Origin: Thermodesulfovibrionales bacterium
GTDB taxonomy: Bacteria; Nitrospirota; Thermodesulfovibrionia; Thermodesulfovibrionales; UBA6898
Length of the DNA: 40,647 nucleotides
NCBI GenBank assembly: GCA_044450345.1
Contig: JBIOIY010000024.1
Location: 1-40,647 of the forward strand
Reading direction: 5' to 3'
Shown here: positions 1 through 5,443 of the stretch, piece after piece
Numbering within the stretch: the first letter of the stretch is position 1
Layout of the letters: each line of letters begins with the position of its first letter
The notes under the pieces: model-generated
What the model was told of the DNA's origin: nothing
What the model saw: the letters and a program-made list of their open reading frames with translations, nothing else
Database searches by the model: none
Program-made: the position numbers and the translations under genes

Positions 1-1255
1 ACAGACCAGCAAGAAGATCATAAAGAAGATCAAGCGCTTTTCAGGGGTGAGCGACATTATCGAGAAGCAGACCCTGGCATTGGAAGACGTCAGCGGCAGG
101 CCGCTTGTGGCAGGCAACAAGGTCACCCTCCTGATAGACGGACCTGCGACATACGCCGCAATGCTGAAGGCTGTCAGAGAGGCAAAAAACAATATCAACA
201 TCGAGACCTTCATTTTCGAAGACGACGAAGTCGGAAGGCTCTTCGCTGAGGAGTTTCTGAAAAAGCAGGCCGAAGGCGTTCAGGTCAATATCATCTATGA
301 CAGCATGGGTTCGAAAAATACGCCGCAGGCCTTCTTTCAAAAACTGCGCGACAGTGGGATCAATGTCCTCGAATTCAACCCTGTCAATCCCTTGTTGACC
401 CTTGTCGGGGAGTCGCATTTGGCCCACCGGGACCACCGTAAAATCCTCGTTGTGGACGGCTCGATCGCCTTTACCGGCGGCGTCAACATAAGTCATGTTT
501 ACACCAGCCTATCCGGGATAGCTGGTGAACATAAGAAAGAGGAGATGAAAGAGAGAGAGATCGAGGAACCCTGGCGAGATACGCATGTGCAGATCGAAGG
601 ACCTGCCGCCGCTGAATTTCAGAAGCTTTTTCTGGATACCTGGAAGGACCGGAAGGGACCTGAACTTCAGGAGAAAGACTATTTACGGCAGCTGAAACCA
701 AAAGGAAGCGACTTAGTGCAGGTGATCGGCAGCGTCCCCGGAGAGCTGAACAGGGTCACCTTCATTATGTATGTCGCAGCGTTTCTGAATGCGCAGCGCT
801 CTGTCCATCTCACCACGCCATACTTCGTGCCCGACAGACAGGCGATGAGCGCTCTTATCGACGCTGCCAAACGCGGGGTCGATGTGAAGATCATCCTGCC
901 TGAGATGAGTGATTCGGGTCTAACCCTCTATGCCGGCCATTATCAATACTCAAACCTTCTGAAGTCAGGCGTAAAGCTTTATGAACGACAGCATGCGATG
1001 ATACATGCCAAGACCTCGGTGGTCGACGGGGTATGGTCCACGGTCGGATCCACGAACATGGACCTGTGGAGTTTTCTCCATAACGACGAGGTGAATGCGA
1101 TCATCATCGGCGGCGATTTTGCCGCTGAGATGGAAGCCTTGTTCGAACACGACCTGGAACAGTCAAAGGAAGTAGTCCCCGATGAATGGAGAAGGCGGCC
1201 TCTTTTACCCCGCATCAAGGAGTGGTTCGCTCACCTCTTCAGACGCTATCTGTAG
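1..1255 (+). CDS. cls: Cardiolipin synthase (phospholipase D family), 5' end outside the window
   Basis: Two HKD motifs (HRKILVVDG, HAKTSVVDG), plus WRDTHV and TPYFVP. The frame stays open upstream of GTG 47 to the window edge (QTSKKIIKKIKRFSGV). Confidence 0.9.
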   Translation, partial: QTSKKIIKKIKRFSGVSDIIEKQTLALEDVSGRPLVAGNKVTLLIDGPATYAAMLKAVREAKNNINIETFIFEDDEVGRLFAEEFLKKQAEGVQVNIIYDSMGSKNTPQAFFQKLRDSGINVLEFNPVNPLLTLVGESHLAHRDHRKILVVDGSIAFTGGVNISHVYTSLSGIAGEHKKEEMKEREIEEPWRDTHVQIEGPAAAEFQKLFLDTWKDRKGPELQEKDYLRQLKPKGSDLVQVIGSVPGELNRVTFIMYVAAFLNAQRSVHLTTPYFVPDRQAMSALIDAAKRGVDVKIILPEMSDSGLTLYAGHYQYSNLLKSGVKLYERQHAMIHAKTSVVDGVWSTVGSTNMDLWSFLHNDEVNAIIIGGDFAAEMEALFEHDLEQSKEVVPDEWRRRPLLPRIKEWFAHLFRRYL

Positions 1256-1331
1256 CGCCCGCTGCCTTTTCGACAGTCAATGTTCAAGCCCGAGAGAGGC
1301 GGGTCTTGCCGCGTTGTGAGGTTGTCTCGGG

Positions 1332-1364
1332 TTGTATATTTTAGTTACTTGGGGTTAATATATT
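1332..1364 (+). promoter_or_regulatory. Possible sigma70 promoter giving a leaderless or near-leaderless transcript for the 1370 ORF
   Basis: TTGTAT (1332-1337), 18 bp, TAATAT (1356-1361), overlapped by TATATT (1359-1364). ATG 1370 lies at the predicted +1 and has no good SD. Confidence 0.35.
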
Positions 1365-1369
1365 TTGTC

Positions 1370-1714
1370 ATGATAGAGAAAAGAGTTGTCATTTTTCTCA
1401 TTGCCTTTGCAATCGTCGTTCAGAACACCTGTCCTTATGGATGGGCGGCGAAAACGGCCTTTGTATCTCCTTATACATCTCACTGCCCTCACTGCCCAAA
1501 GAAGGAAGACCACAAGCCGGCGAAGTCAGATTCGCGGAATGATGTCAAAAAAGATTTATCAAGTATCAATCACCTTTTTATGATCCATATCGGCAAACTC
1601 GATACTGCATTCCAACTTCTTTCCCCGACAGAGCATGCTCCATCTATTAAGTCCGACGATTTTATGGATGTGTATTTAGAGCCGCTCTTAAGACCCCCCT
1701 GTCGTCTTTCCTAA
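1370..1714 (+). CDS. Small exported CxxC / C-terminal RPP protein (114 aa); DUF2946/CruR/CutF-like putative leader or arrest peptide
   Basis: From ATG 1370: signal/TM-like N-terminus (KRVVIFLIAFAIVV), HCPHC at aa 38-42, a hydrophilic linker, then LLRPP-CRLS at the C-terminus. Directly upstream of genes for His/Met-rich proteins. Confidence 0.65.
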   Translation: MIEKRVVIFLIAFAIVVQNTCPYGWAAKTAFVSPYTSHCPHCPKKEDHKPAKSDSRNDVKKDLSSINHLFMIHIGKLDTAFQLLSPTEHAPSIKSDDFMDVYLEPLLRPPCRLS

Positions 1715-1852
1715 TTACTAGAAGTACGAATAAGCCATCGAAACTGACGCAGACAACGTAGGGATGAGTGCCGATATAAGCGCGTTCACCTCAAACGATG
1801 CTTCAGTTCCGTGGAGACCGTTTTGCATTTATGATTTTTACTGGAGGCTTAT

Positions 1853-3046
1853 ATGAACAAGACTAAGATGATTTTCAATACCGCGATTGTGCTTTATTTT
1901 ATCATCGGGCTCGAAGTGCTGATAATGATAAGCCCGTTTGCGGGGTTCTTTTATTCGGTCTTCAACCCCGTACTGCTCAAACTATCTTCTCATTCCTCTA
2001 CGAGGTGGCTCAGTGCCTTTTACCTGCCCCATATGGTCCTGCCCCAGGACGGCTTCTTACAGTTTGTGCGGGTTATGGGGTCAGTCTTTTTCGTCATGGG
2101 CATCGCGATCTTTCTCATCTGCGCCATCCAGATATACACCGCAAAGCTCAGGCGAAAAGGAGCCGTGCTTGCAGGCCTGTATGCAGTGATACGCCACCCT
2201 CAATACCTTGGGCTCGGGATTGCGGGACTCGGGCTATCGATCCTCTGGCCGAGGTTTCTGACCGCCGTGTTGTGGCTCGTCATGATGGGAGTTTATTATC
2301 TTCTCGCTAAGGACGAGGAGCGGCGGATGCTGAATGCCCATGCAGAAACATATAGTAAGTATATGAAGAAGACTGGTATGTTCCTGCCGCGAGGGATCGG
2401 AAAATCGTTAACTCCCCTATCGCTTAGCGGAAAGCTCGTGCTTGCGCTCGGATTTGCCGGATTCGTGATGAGTGGGACGTTTCTGCTGCGGTCTTATACG
2501 GTCTCGCATCTCACTCTCTGGACAAAAGCAAAAAACGTCGTCGCCCTTTCAATCCTGCCCGAGGACGGCTTCAAGATGGAGCACCGCATGGAGAGCATCC
2601 TCGATCTCAAGGAAGTGAAAGAACGAATGCAGGACAATAAGAAGTACCTGGTCTACTTCCTGCCACGCGACTACATAATGCAAGGCATGATTGCGGATAC
2701 GGGTGGAGACTGGAAACTTTACAAGCGGCACCATACCGCGGCCATGATAACGGACTGGGTGTTTCACCCTTTCCGACATCTGCGCGAGGGACATCACGCC
2801 ATGCACAGCGGTATGCATATGCCGGATGGCAACAATGCGGGAATAGAGGGCGGGGTAATCCGGCGGCTCATCTTCCTTTCTATAGAGGATATTGAGATAA
2901 GGACCCCTGCGGACCTCTTTGCGATCAATGCCCTGCGCATGCCGCAGTTCATGGTGGACGTGGATGTGCACACCATGCAACTGCTTGATGTGAAGGACCT
3001 TGCGCATGGGAGCGGGTGGGGTACCGTACCGACCCCGGTATTTTGA
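1853..3046 (+). CDS. ICMT/PEMT-like membrane methyltransferase fused to a C-terminal domain with a His/Met-rich segment
   Basis: Several TM helices, GLYAVIRHPQY..EERR motif of the isoprenylcysteine carboxylmethyltransferase family, HHAMHSGMHM near the C-terminus, SD GGAGG at 1843-1847. Confidence 0.75.
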   Translation: MNKTKMIFNTAIVLYFIIGLEVLIMISPFAGFFYSVFNPVLLKLSSHSSTRWLSAFYLPHMVLPQDGFLQFVRVMGSVFFVMGIAIFLICAIQIYTAKLRRKGAVLAGLYAVIRHPQYLGLGIAGLGLSILWPRFLTAVLWLVMMGVYYLLAKDEERRMLNAHAETYSKYMKKTGMFLPRGIGKSLTPLSLSGKLVLALGFAGFVMSGTFLLRSYTVSHLTLWTKAKNVVALSILPEDGFKMEHRMESILDLKEVKERMQDNKKYLVYFLPRDYIMQGMIADTGGDWKLYKRHHTAAMITDWVFHPFRHLREGHHAMHSGMHMPDGNNAGIEGGVIRRLIFLSIEDIEIRTPADLFAINALRMPQFMVDVDVHTMQLLDVKDLAHGSGWGTVPTPVF

Positions 3047-3074
3047 AGCGATGATGATAAGAAAGGAGGATTAA

Positions 3075-4253
3075 ATGAAAAAAGCGATTTTGTTATTGGG
3101 CGTCTTGTTCTTGATAATCTCCGGACATGCCTTCGCAGGAGAAAAGAGCGTTGAAACAGAAAGGTATGCCTTCGTCACAAACGAAGGGGATAATAACCTC
3201 CTGGTCGTCGATCTTAAATCCGAAAAAACCGTCAAGGTCATCCCAACCGGAAAGACGCCCCATGCCCTCGTCTTCACTGCGGACGGGAAAGGTTATGTAA
3301 GCAACAGGGGTTCCAAAGAGCTGACTGTCATCGACGGTAATAAATTCGAAGTCATAAAGACCGTGCCTCTCCCGGCAACTTCTTTTCAACTGGCCCTGTC
3401 CCCTGACGGAAAGACCCTTTCCGTAGCCTATAAAGACGCCCTTAGGATCTCCTTTATCGACACGGCGACCGATGAGATCATAAAGACCATTCCCATAGGA
3501 AAAGAACCGGAAGGGGTCTTTAAAGGCGCGATGATGAGGCATCCGTACTGGTCTAAAGACGGCGGCTTTGTGTACGCGTCTGATGACGTCAACAACACTA
3601 TTGTGAAAATCGATGCAAAAACCGGGGAGATCAAAACGACCATCGCGTTGCCGGGTCCGAACCACTACCTTCATTCTTCCAGGGACGGCAAGCTGCTTTA
3701 CGCCGTGAACGAGGCGGAGAGAGGAGGAAGGACTTCTGTAACCGTGATAGACAGCGGAACCGACAAGGTGGTGAAGGACATTCCGGTCCCTCTTGGATCC
3801 GGCGAGCAAGGTATTCTGCATCATGGCGAATTCACAAAGGACGGGAAGTATTTCTTTGTCTGCAATGAGGGCGGCAGGACGGTGGCGATCATAGACACCG
3901 CCAAACTTGAGGTCGCAAAAACGATCAAGGCCGGCCCGGGGGCAGGGCATCCCGCTATGACGAAGGACGGAAAGTATATATTCGTCATTCAGCATAAGGA
4001 CAACACGGTCGCTGTTATCGACGTGAAGAAACAGGAGGTCGTGAAGAATATTTCCGTAGGAGACGGCAAAAAGCAGGCCCACGCCTCCTATTTCACGCCT
4101 GACGGCGCCTTTTTCTATATGGTCAACGCCGAAGACGGCACAATAAATAAAATCGACACGGCTAAAATGGAAGTGGTATCAAAGATCCCTGTGGGCAAGT
4201 CTTCGATGTTTTTCGGCATTAAGGAAGGGAAAGGGTTCCCGGCTACCGAGTGA
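3075..4253 (+). CDS. Secreted YVTN/YncE-type beta-propeller repeat protein
   Basis: Signal peptide ending AFA, repeated (S/T)xDGK..YV.N / V.VID..K.I.VG blade motifs, SD AGGAGG. Confidence 0.85.
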   Translation: MKKAILLLGVLFLIISGHAFAGEKSVETERYAFVTNEGDNNLLVVDLKSEKTVKVIPTGKTPHALVFTADGKGYVSNRGSKELTVIDGNKFEVIKTVPLPATSFQLALSPDGKTLSVAYKDALRISFIDTATDEIIKTIPIGKEPEGVFKGAMMRHPYWSKDGGFVYASDDVNNTIVKIDAKTGEIKTTIALPGPNHYLHSSRDGKLLYAVNEAERGGRTSVTVIDSGTDKVVKDIPVPLGSGEQGILHHGEFTKDGKYFFVCNEGGRTVAIIDTAKLEVAKTIKAGPGAGHPAMTKDGKYIFVIQHKDNTVAVIDVKKQEVVKNISVGDGKKQAHASYFTPDGAFFYMVNAEDGTINKIDTAKMEVVSKIPVGKSSMFFGIKEGKGFPATE

Positions 4254-4300
4254 GAAGACTGATATCGGAGGTAGTGCTAATCGCCTTAGGAGTCTGTCGT

Positions 4301-4329
4301 TTGCAGCGGACCTTTTTCCATGGTAGGAT
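4301..4329 (+). promoter_or_regulatory. Putative sigma70 promoter for the 4458 ORF
   Basis: TTGCAG (4301-4306), 17 bp, TAGGAT (4324-4329) with an extended -10 TG. Confidence 0.45.
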
Positions 4330-4457
4330 TCGATAAAGAGGGACGGACAAAGGCGTGAAACCGGGGTGAGAAGCAGAAGTCCGATTTCTCCAGGCGAAAA
4401 ACCGGAGAACGGGGGAAAAAAGAGGTAGACGCATACGGCTGGCGAAAAGGGAGGAGT

Positions 4458-5066
4458 ATGAGCGAACTGGAGAGAGGGCCGCAGATCCCGGACAGGAGGG
4501 AAAACAAGGATCTTGTCGGAGAGGCATGGTATGCAGGTATAAATTCTCCTTTGGAGGACGATTCAAGGGCTACATGCACGCTTCTCATGTCATATCTGGG
4601 TGTGGGGCCGAGATCAAAAGGCGTTGAATATATTCTCTCCGCCCTCGAAGGACCGGGAGACAACCATAAGAAGGCGAGATGTCTCGGTGAAGTGATGGAA
4701 TATCTGGCGAACGACCCGTCCGACTACTATCACCGGCTTCGGCCGAAGGACATCGACTATACAAGCGAGCACGGCTTTGACCATCGTGCCGACGACTTTT
4801 ATAAGGCCCTTGACATCGACCCGAAAGGGCAGATGGAAGTCATGGGCATCGTGCTCGAGATCAGCAATGGGATACTGAAATCCATCGTAGGCAACGGCCG
4901 GTTAACGGCGTCAAATAGCAGTCGCGTGTTCGAGGACGTACTCGACATGCATTCACAAACCGACCGGAAAGTTATTGCTGCCGCGATTTATAATTTCTTT
5001 ACAGCCCCGCTGCCGAGGCCGAAGACGTTCGGGCCTCCGGTCAAATTGCCGCCGTCTTCCTTTTAG
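4458..5066 (+). CDS. Hypothetical protein (202 aa)
   Basis: Strong SD (GGAGGAG) before ATG and protein-like composition. No family recognised. Confidence 0.65.
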   Translation: MSELERGPQIPDRRENKDLVGEAWYAGINSPLEDDSRATCTLLMSYLGVGPRSKGVEYILSALEGPGDNHKKARCLGEVMEYLANDPSDYYHRLRPKDIDYTSEHGFDHRADDFYKALDIDPKGQMEVMGIVLEISNGILKSIVGNGRLTASNSSRVFEDVLDMHSQTDRKVIAAAIYNFFTAPLPRPKTFGPPVKLPPSSF

Positions 5067-5215: not shown

Positions 5216-5443
5216 ATGCATCATATCGAAGGACCAGAGCGGGACGCACAGAGACGGAAGGCCATTGAAGAGTTCCGCATCCAAAAAGTAGGGCTCCTTC
5301 TGCATATAATCGAAGAGTTGGACAACATGGAACTGGATGTCATGGAGATGGAAGCTGTACTTCGTTCCTGCGGCCTGGATTACAAATGTGCGATGAAGAT
5401 CGGCGCAGCCCTGAGGGATGAGGAGGAGGACGGCGGCAAATAA
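5216..5443 (+). CDS. Hypothetical small acidic helical protein (75 aa)
   Basis: SD AAGGA before ATG; followed by a hairpin and T-tract. Confidence 0.6.
   Translation: MHHIEGPERDAQRRKAIEEFRIQKVGLLLHIIEELDNMELDVMEMEAVLRSCGLDYKCAMKIGAALRDEEEDGGK

Follow-up and report, generated by a model that had tools for sequence, protein, structure and literature searches.

Contig JBIOIY010000024.1 of a Thermodesulfovibrionales bacterium (Nitrospirota; assembly GCA_044450345.1; genome of 3.19 Mb, 91% complete), analyzed over its 40,647 nucleotides (nt) and called the window below, contains a short open reading frame (ORF) directly upstream of genes for an ICMT-like membrane protein and a secreted β-propeller. 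Judged by its sequence conservation, the 114-amino-acid (114-aa) product of this ORF is a member of a real, unnamed Nitrospirota family, beyond chance, that we call QNTCP after a near-invariant motif. We propose that it is probably a cis-acting, co-translationally exported sensor similar to CutF, in which a ribosome pause would turn on the downstream gene (the cargo). Conservation and spacing of the signal, Cys, and Pro-Pro (PP) motifs, first place before a co-oriented gene, and an anti-Shine-Dalgarno (anti-SD) codon bias in most homologues were computed; the steps beyond sequence conservation are those that we infer. This kind of system is already known. What is new is a bias toward CCT at the first Pro codon, which would make the pause codons themselves an anti-SD.

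A Nitrospirota leader family with a predicted export signal

The leader and the intergenic region contain the following features.

1370..1714, + strand: leader ORF of the QNTCP family, 114 aa (translation, homologue searches, alignment)
1370..1447, + strand: signal-peptide-like region, residues 1 to 26, including the near-invariant QNTCP at 1421-1435 (alignment, hydropathy, n-region charge)
1481..1498, + strand: HCPHCP, residues 38 to 43, with C42 near-invariant and C39 variable (alignment)
1691..1699, + strand: Arg-Pro-Pro, candidate pause site, codons AGA CCC CCC (sequence, family codon counts)
1730..1736, + strand: 7-nt intergenic stretch with predicted pairing to the 3' half of the Shine-Dalgarno (SD) sequence and the spacer, 1846-1852 (folding model)
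1739..1811, + strand: intergenic hairpin formed by arms 1739-1751 and 1799-1811; compensatory changes occur among the closest relatives (counted on a derived structure)
1843..1847, + strand: SD sequence GGAGG of the methyltransferase-like gene (sequence)

Translation confirmed the ORF of the original prediction, with a basic-then-hydrophobic, signal-like N-terminus, HCPHC, 65 residues between C42 and R108, a C-terminal LLRPPCRLS with AGA CCC CCC at the RPP, and a gap of 138 nt to the ATG at 1853. A cardiolipin-synthase-type gene upstream ends at 1255, and the leader frame is open from 1256. An ATG at 1280 would yield 144 aa; homologues start at the Met at 1370.

Pfam and NCBIfam contained no family for the leader. 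A search with the single sequence returned 11 homologues, and near-identical ORFs came from other samples at 96% and 78% identity. A profile built from the 11 homologues matched 37 of 401 genomes of the phylum, and a wider profile, run against 1.84 billion representatives, recovered 79 clusters (50% identity), with a layout that was alike by inspection. From 40 profile matches, 39 leaders were extracted; a match at a contig end (G282:C105) and a duplicate of the window were not refetched. Motif counts refer to 37 complete leaders, omitting one cut at a contig end and one truncated to 51 aa, and codon, ribosome-binding site (RBS), and folding counts refer to 35, as two of the 37 had no called downstream start.

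In the alignment of the complete leaders, mean column identity was 39%, Q18, N19, C21, K28, P109, and P110 were invariant, and T20, P22, G24, A26, and C42 were conserved in at least 90%. The PP lay 2 to 6 residues from the stop in all 37. It was preceded by Arg in 20, Lys in 16, and His in 1, so that the R/K class was kept in 36/37, spread over AGA, CGA, CGG, AAA, and AAG codons; the second residue before it was Leu in 25/37 and never Arg. The CxxC was found in 24/37 genome leaders and in 22 of 61 representatives that contained both QNTC and PP. Thus, of the two motifs singled out in the original prediction, PP held throughout and CxxC only in part: the invariant Cys is C21 of QNTCP, with C42 near-invariant and C39 often missing.

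The distance from C21 to the R/K before PP was 80 to 86 residues in 37/37 leaders, while the intervening sequence drifts. From CxxC to the R/K it was 56 to 66, with a mode of 64, in the 24 leaders with CxxC. Three Cys residues lie within 42 residues from C21 in 26/37 and at least two in 36/37, and C21, C39, and C42 probably form a three-Cys site. Leaders were 106 to 126 aa long as extracted. As a proxy for a signal peptide, an 11-residue hydropathy of at least 2.7 was found in 37/37 and a Lys or Arg in the n-region in 36/37, and the G-x-A pattern would place cleavage after Ala26. C21 may alternatively be a lipoprotein Cys, but Q-N-T-C departs from the usual lipobox.

The leader and a membrane methyltransferase-like gene form the conserved unit

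The genes downstream of the leader in the window, and the hairpin behind them, are as follows.

1853..3046, + strand: conserved cargo, 397-aa membrane protein with an ICMT-fold N-terminal part (~1-183) and a C-terminal domain (Pfam, structure)
2777..2821, + strand: variable His/Met loop of the cargo, residues 309-323 (alignment)
3075..4253, + strand: secreted eight-bladed β-propeller, 392 aa, nine invariant His; a variable passenger (predicted structure, alignment)
4292..4311, + strand: terminator-like hairpin 3' of the propeller gene (terminator scan)

A homologue of the gene at 1853 directly followed 30 of the 39 extracted leaders. Other first genes were acetolactate-decarboxylase-like (ALDC-like; 4), ABC/MacAB-type (2), and a TolC/RND set (1); the remaining two leaders were a 51-aa truncated copy before a chromate transporter (L064) and one at a contig end. 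The first gene was co-oriented and started 38 to 369 nt downstream in 35/37 complete leaders. Reciprocally, a leader immediately precedes 30/43 close cargo homologues and none of the 8 distant paralogues, a count that excludes four cargo fragments (contig end or weak) and for which ~1.5 to 2 kb upstream of leaderless cargo was examined. The propeller gene followed the cargo in 1/39 genome loci, the window itself, and in 1/10 metagenome loci (L123). Because the propeller is so rarely the second gene, the conserved unit, by gene order, is the leader plus the methyltransferase-like gene, set within variable islands. The leader-to-cargo linkage that had been anticipated is therefore borne out, and the conserved cargo pair is not. 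That the same leader heads several unrelated first genes is as expected of a portable regulator.

The product of 1853-3046, noticed from the sequence as ICMT-like with a His/Met cluster, matches PEMT/ICMT families. The cluster is located to residues 309-323, a variable and poorly predicted loop in which H309 is the sole invariant residue. Its N-terminal part has an ICMT fold (Z 9.2 to Ma-ICMT, PDB 4A2N; 154 residues aligned; root mean square deviation 3.9) and keeps the cofactor-pocket motifs G-[LI]-Y..RHP-x-Y and EE..L..Y..YM.KTG (E 1.6e-8). The cargo scores far below the cut-offs of the named ICMT, PEMT, and MddA equivalogs, however, and differs from Ma-ICMT in an extra ~180-aa C-terminal domain; the ICMT fold is also used by sterol and steroid reductases. 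In the predicted structure, a helix at residues 191-218 in the membrane is followed by an α/β domain, which had no Pfam match and no usable ESM Atlas match and is probably periplasmic. Foldseek returned no match to the cargo at E values up to 0.001, and a locus search that used just the cargo protein as query recovered a single locus. Cargo-like proteins are widespread, with 2,972 matches; those with a named source are from Nitrospirota, and the genomes searched are therefore assigned to that phylum. We regard the cargo as a putative S-adenosylmethionine (SAM)-dependent membrane methyltransferase.

An ALDC-like secreted protein (weak PF03306 match, E 1e-6 to 1e-10) was encoded next after the methyltransferase-like gene in 11 of those 30 loci and is the commonest second cargo (L043:2347-3138, L124:965-1684, and 13 more); possibly it binds metal. 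In G181:C75 (L040:559-891 and 3337-3663), QNTCP leaders occur in tandem, one before a methyltransferase-like gene and a chromate transporter and the other before an ALDC-like gene. A frameshift or stop interrupts the cargo gene in L032, L053, L059, and L107, which together with the 51-aa leader of L064 suggests island turnover or assembly errors.

The candidate pause codons resemble an anti-SD sequence in most homologues

In most homologues, the codons for R/K-P-P form ..A CCT CC, which is complementary to GGAGGT. The first Pro codon was CCT in 25/37 leaders, compared to 21% in neighboring genes, 7/35 at the Pro of QNTCP, 70/277 at other leader prolines, 22 to 32% for the leading Pro of PP pairs within long ORFs, and 0 to 39% across 11 Pro columns conserved in the cargo. 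On a tree of 29 pairs, explaining the 8 non-CCT codons takes 8 changes, which makes them independent departures. The Arg codon before PP was AGA or CGA in 17/20. Native PP codons paired with their cognate RBS better than synonymous recodings did in 25/35 loci, and an anti-SD-like word was found between the R/K codon and stop+12 in 26/35, compared to 3 to 11 of 35 in equal upstream windows.

The loci were also modeled by ensemble folding. Masking a ribosome footprint at PP lowered the cost of opening the RBS in 20/35 loci and raised it in 5, whereas a control mask 45 nt upstream lowered it in 9 and raised it in 9. The clearest predicted switch was L132 (12.6 to 6.0 kcal/mol; control mask, 13.7); L131 and L123 are weaker cases, since the upstream control mask also opens their RBS. 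A second, unrelated family of PP-ending leaders, named LDVC and described below, repeats the bias (CCT in 19/28, with 37% CCT at other prolines; duplex in 17/23). RAPP leaders of the same phylum had no first-Pro bias (CCT in 9/28), and their second Pro was CCT in 19/28. We found nothing in the literature on proline codons serving as an anti-SD.

Relation to CutF, CruR, and other arrest leaders

In the literature cited here, the metal-sensing arrest leaders that have been worked out are CruR and CutF, both of which sense copper and both of which are from Proteobacteria. As described in PMC9973294, CutF of Rhodobacter capsulatus (cutFOG) resembles the QNTCP leader in its length of <150 aa, Sec-type signal, Cys motif, and co-oriented downstream gene. 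Both CutF (PEPEGPPPRL) and the QNTCP leader (LEPLLRPPCRLS) have PP among their last 15 residues, in a context other than RAPP. Relief of SD masking by a paused ribosome is predicted for CutF (bioRxiv 10.1101/2025.02.05.636593) and, in the folding models, for part of the QNTCP loci. Reports on CutF describe a PPP pause involving elongation factor P (EF-P) and a stem-loop that shields the SD (PMC9973294, bioRxiv 10.1101/2025.02.05.636593). When the filters for CutF-like proteins given in PMC9973294 were applied to the QNTCP family, we found a length of <150 aa, PP in the last 15 residues, a Sec signal by the hydropathy proxy, a co-oriented gene within 1,000 nt, and a Cys/His motif by sequence (C21 invariant, C42 in at least 90%; binding is predicted). 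In the folding models, SD masking was relieved by the PP footprint in the 20/35 loci given above and made worse in 5; the SD of the window was masked and was not opened.

The two families also differ: the QNTCP leader has two prolines and CutF three, no sequence link between them was seen in the material compared, and the anti-SD, which at cutO is part of an intergenic stem-loop, coincides with the pause codons or the stop in the QNTCP family. The distance from sensor Cys to pause motif, counted from CxxC or from QNTC, differs from that of CutF, and the cargo is methyltransferase-like rather than a multicopper oxidase.

CruR of Bordetella pertussis (Bp2923; DUF2946/PF11162), as presented in PMC9426467, is likewise an exported, operon-heading leader with a CxxC-type motif and a near-terminal Pro-Pro, a long intergenic region (162 nt for cruR), and a bubble of C over G at its 3' end; its arrest is demonstrated in PMC12992588. 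PF11162 matched none of the 37 QNTCP leaders at E values up to 1. It was found nowhere in the window genome and in 4/401 genomes of the phylum, all at other loci, and a profile comparison between QNTCP and those 4 sequences gave a probability of 0.14%, which from so small an alignment is weak alone. In CruR, the spacing between CXXC and arrest motif is conserved at 45 residues (within 1 to 2), the signal is dispensable, and the cargo is a TonB-dependent importer (PMC9426467); in the QNTCP family the spacing is longer, conservation is highest where the signal region ends, the cargo is not an importer of that kind, RAPP is absent, and CxxC is not invariant as it is in DUF2946. By these comparisons the QNTCP family is separate from DUF2946/CruR and fits the rule-based CutF-like filters. 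The original prediction of an analogous, possibly divergent leader is supported by the conserved exported Cys/PP ORF, the CutF/CruR-like layout, and RNA-level signs of cis control.

A hydrophobic F-V-F-like patch (window 1577-1579, residue 70) is kept ~38 to 41 residues before PP, a position similar to that of the CXXC of CruR with respect to RAPP. During a pause, this patch could contact the translocon or the tunnel exit.

Other small secreted upstream ORFs with Pro-Pro near the C-terminus include ApdA, ApdP, ApcA, SecM, and the metal-linked leaders of Streptomyces (PMC12992588, PMC10987492, PMC7897499), and SecM-type control by SD unmasking resembles the model proposed here. RAPP and RGPP peptides contain an irreplaceable Arg two places before the first Pro, as described in PMC12992588. 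The QNTCP family lacks it; its Arg is one place off and is replaced by Lys in 16/37 leaders, which speaks against the earlier view of RPP as a RAPP variant. The pause data presented in PMC8129111, PMC4140641, and bioRxiv 10.1101/2024.08.03.606492 cover RPPP, FPPC, and FPPR, not LRPP. By language-model features, the nearest proteins were CzcI (PF28244), which PMC9973294 counts among CutF-like proteins, and unnamed 114- to 115-aa Bacteroidota clusters in the ESM Atlas (0.95 to 0.96); the CzcI cluster shares only 128/256 features with the QNTCP leader, and this alignment-free likeness is a lead only. We found nothing on the QNTCP family in the literature searched; the 5,334-protein list of PMC9973294 may hold members. 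The term "Nitrospir" is absent from the main texts of PMC9426467, PMC9973294, and PMC10987492 and occurs once in that of PMC12992588.

A model for the QNTCP leader

In the model that we favor, the leader would be exported co-translationally and the ribosome would pause at [R/K]PP. The pause would be of the EF-P-sensitive diprolyl type, as in CutF, and the window genome contains efp; an arrest of the RAPP type is unlikely because its irreplaceable Arg is missing (PMC12992588). During the pause, C39 and C42, 66 to 69 residues back, would have emerged from the membrane and would sit beside C21, the Cys at the signal-peptide end. Binding of a thiophilic ion or a metalloid by C21, C39, and C42 would prolong the pause. 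The paused ribosome would cover the anti-SD and a C-rich stretch that is a potential Rho-loading site, so that downstream detoxification-type genes, with the putative SAM-dependent membrane methyltransferase as the main target, would be expressed. The ribosomal exit tunnel holds ~30 to 35 residues. Another ~17 are given as needed to cross the membrane (PMC9973294). The 66 to 69 residues exceed the sum, and the geometry is therefore consistent with sensing outside the membrane. Furthermore, a Cys-to-PP distance held at 80 to 86 while the sequence drifts is as expected for a nascent-chain sensor.

Several observations weigh against this model. LRPP and LKPP are not RxPP, since the −2 position is never Arg; CxxC is missing in 13/37 leaders; and 13/43 close cargo homologues have no leader directly upstream, several of them being inner genes after TauE or ZraP-like genes. 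At the RNA level, some control Pro columns are ~70% one codon, though that codon is CCG or CCC, and masking the stop codon opens the RBS almost as readily as masking PP (mean, 6.4 versus 6.1 kcal/mol). In only 14/35 loci does pairing between the SD and the PP codons exceed a probability of 0.3. Cognate leader codon-RBS pairs were no better than noncognate pairs (19/35; permutation P = 0.33), and there is thus no covariation beyond the shared SD. The genomes are kin, so that P values and tests overstate. In the window itself, the CCC CCC codons pair worse than recoded versions (−7.2 versus −10.6 kcal/mol), and the SD remains paired whichever mask is applied (unpaired probability, 0.13).

We also advance, only tentatively, a more specific version. 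It holds that [L/E]-[R/K/H/Q]-P-P is a second pause grammar, whose PP codons would be both pause site and anti-SD of the next gene, and that the three-Cys sensor, including the Cys at the signal-peptide end, would read a non-copper signal such as As(III), Hg, Cd, selenite, or reactive sulfur and induce a new membrane methyltransferase that would detoxify it by methylation.

If correct, the model would make the QNTCP family a sequence-unrelated test case of leader-based sensing in anaerobic Nitrospirota, with another pause motif and a longer sensor-to-pause distance. An RNA switch written into the pause codons would also make the peptide and RNA roles separable by single synonymous changes.

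The signal is probably not copper in particular

As a special case of the favored mechanism, the leader could be a strict copper sensor, with the methyltransferase-like protein and the His-ringed propeller handling copper. All characterized CutF/CruR cases sense Cu, and the CxxC/His motifs, the His/Met loop of the cargo, and the invariant His residues of the propeller fit such a role. The propeller was predicted to be eight-bladed (predicted local distance difference test, 87) with a signal-like N-terminus, in agreement with the secreted His-rich propeller originally described. Its His63, 156, 197, 200, 249, 250, 292, 307, and 336 were invariant in 8 homologues (58 to 83% identity), which suggests a metal or heme site. 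It also has weak matches to lactonase-type NosZ (144 bits; cut-off, 700) and to thiocyanate dehydrogenase entries.

No copper-specific family (multicopper oxidase, Cu-ATPase, PCuAC, Sco, CusF), however, was found among the downstream proteins scanned, so that the copper-homeostasis genes of CutF and CruR have no counterpart there and the copper reading of the original prediction is not supported; the scan covered 44 + 34 downstream proteins and 24 + 15 neighbors, in overlapping sets, with 22/56 of the remaining downstream ORFs of at least 110 aa outside it. The sole RND permease scored better as a multidrug than as a CusA type. Recurrent families in the islands were chromate, MOT1 molybdate, TauE, and ArsP transporters or transporter-like proteins, DsrE, ArsR/MerR regulators, ECF sigma and anti-sigma factors, ZraP-like proteins, efflux systems, and split-Soret-type cytochromes. 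These neighbors point to general metal/metalloid stress rather than copper in particular.

Other leaders in the window genome bear on the same question. An exported 95-aa leader ending in PP (G000:C35:6918-7205, − strand; L147:2419-2706; LDVC..PC..ERPPKS) precedes a gene for a protein of 509 aa that is rich in Met and His and has a NosL domain at its N-terminus, likelier to be a copper locus than the QNTCP locus. Its LDVC family, ending in [E/D]-[R/H/Q]-P-P, occurs in 42/191 genomes of the phylum, often before split-Soret-like or thioredoxin-like genes. A third leader of 98 aa (G000:C45:7830-8126, − strand; L148:2331-2627), with a His cluster, CPAC, and RAPPV, precedes a gene for a 488-aa porin-like protein and one for a probable metal-binding ABC protein (labels read from the sequence). 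It was missed by PF11162 and belongs to a RAPP-type family found in 24/191 genomes. The NosL and porin-like loci look like uptake loci, which would leave the QNTCP leader for excess or toxicity. A strict copper sensor therefore seems rather unlikely. The QNTCP leader, the methyltransferase-like protein, and the propeller are probable components of a metal/metalloid stress response, and a widespread methyltransferase-like protein and a His-ringed propeller are thereby flagged as probable stress proteins.

Alternative routes from leader to cargo

The CruR type of control provides another mechanism. The paused ribosome would shield a Rho-loading site, ligand would release the pause, and Rho would terminate transcription between the genes, the CCT bias serving a pyrimidine-rich site. 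The window genome contains rho, and intergenic regions are long, as at cruR. C exceeded G in a 78-nt window around PP in 34/35 leaders, and in 32/35 without the PP codons, with the excess ending ~20 nt past PP, a composition compatible with a Rho-loading site. This explanation would also suit the window, for which SD pairing yields no modeled switch. On the other hand, one would expect the ligand to turn efflux- or detoxification-like cargo on rather than off; the Arg AGA/CGA bias adds purines that extend SD pairing and are of no help to a C-rich site; and the RAPP leaders of the phylum lack the first-Pro bias. We consider Rho attenuation improbable as the explanation of the family, although it can coexist with an SD switch.

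It is also conceivable, but quite improbable, that RNA pairing and ordinary translational coupling, without any regulated pause, are what preserve the PP codons, so that every ribosome completing the leader would open the RBS, and that the peptide is a small secreted or anchored Cys-containing metal or thiol chaperone for the cargo. The near-equivalence of stop and PP footprints would follow, [R/K]PP is not a proven arrest sequence, and QNTCP-G-x-A-x-K is conserved far beyond plain signal-peptide need. The fixed Cys-to-PP distance, the R/K class kept across five different codons, and the unrelated cargo headed by the same leader family all argue against it.

A last alternative, that the family is a switch elsewhere and that the window locus has decayed and is constitutive or silent, appeals to its degenerate anti-SD codons, the lack of a modeled switch, the leaderless cargo homologues, and the leader cut to 51 aa, but is very unlikely given the intact peptide motifs of the window, its near-identical ORFs in other samples, and L123, which is the nearest locus to share its CCC CCC codons and which in the model responds to the PP footprint (8.5 to 4.2 kcal/mol).

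In the folding model the window is an exception, without a switch. The predicted pairing partner of its SD, 1730-1736, lies beyond the reach of a ribosome at PP. With a degenerate codon anti-SD, a switch here must use intergenic structure or Rho, or else it has decayed. The intergenic region folded no better than shuffled sequences (z = 0.60 and −1.24). A hairpin common to the window and six close relatives nonetheless had 85.6% of cells paired and 13 double changes (0/500 shuffles), a count from 7 sequences in two clades on a structure derived from the window and L127, which favors the hairpin. RNAalifold on 8 close loci recovered the inner helix only, and the 3' arm of the hairpin competes with the SD-masking fold in the model.

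Minor observations on the locus and its islands

A promoter scan counted 6 sites versus 2.9 expected and found none on the + strand upstream of the leader; the terminator count (3 versus 3.8 expected) was at chance level. Rfam gave no match in 1200-4500 at E values up to 1, and plasmid records gave none to leader or cargo. Two + strand ORFs 3' of the operon, at 4458-5066 (202 aa) and 5216-5443 (75 aa), had no Pfam/NCBIfam family at useful E values.

The propeller is rare, with 7 copies in 6/401 genomes. Besides the copies that follow the cargo, three lie just upstream of a QNTCP leader. Its best TM-scores were 0.72 to 0.75, to NirF, NirN, and cytochrome cd1. Identities as L-NosZ, NirF/NirN, AztD, or thiocyanate dehydrogenase were rejected, as sequence scores were far below the cut-offs and the structural matches were to generic propellers. 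In G376:C1, the cargo and the propeller are headed by an LDVC-family leader (L145:4732-5022) and a DsrE-like gene; by gene content, the leader before this cargo has been exchanged there. The islands also encode a protein in which an integrase-like N-terminal part is fused to a pair of TOBE (molybdate-binding) domains (L145:507-1610 and the upstream gene in L100).

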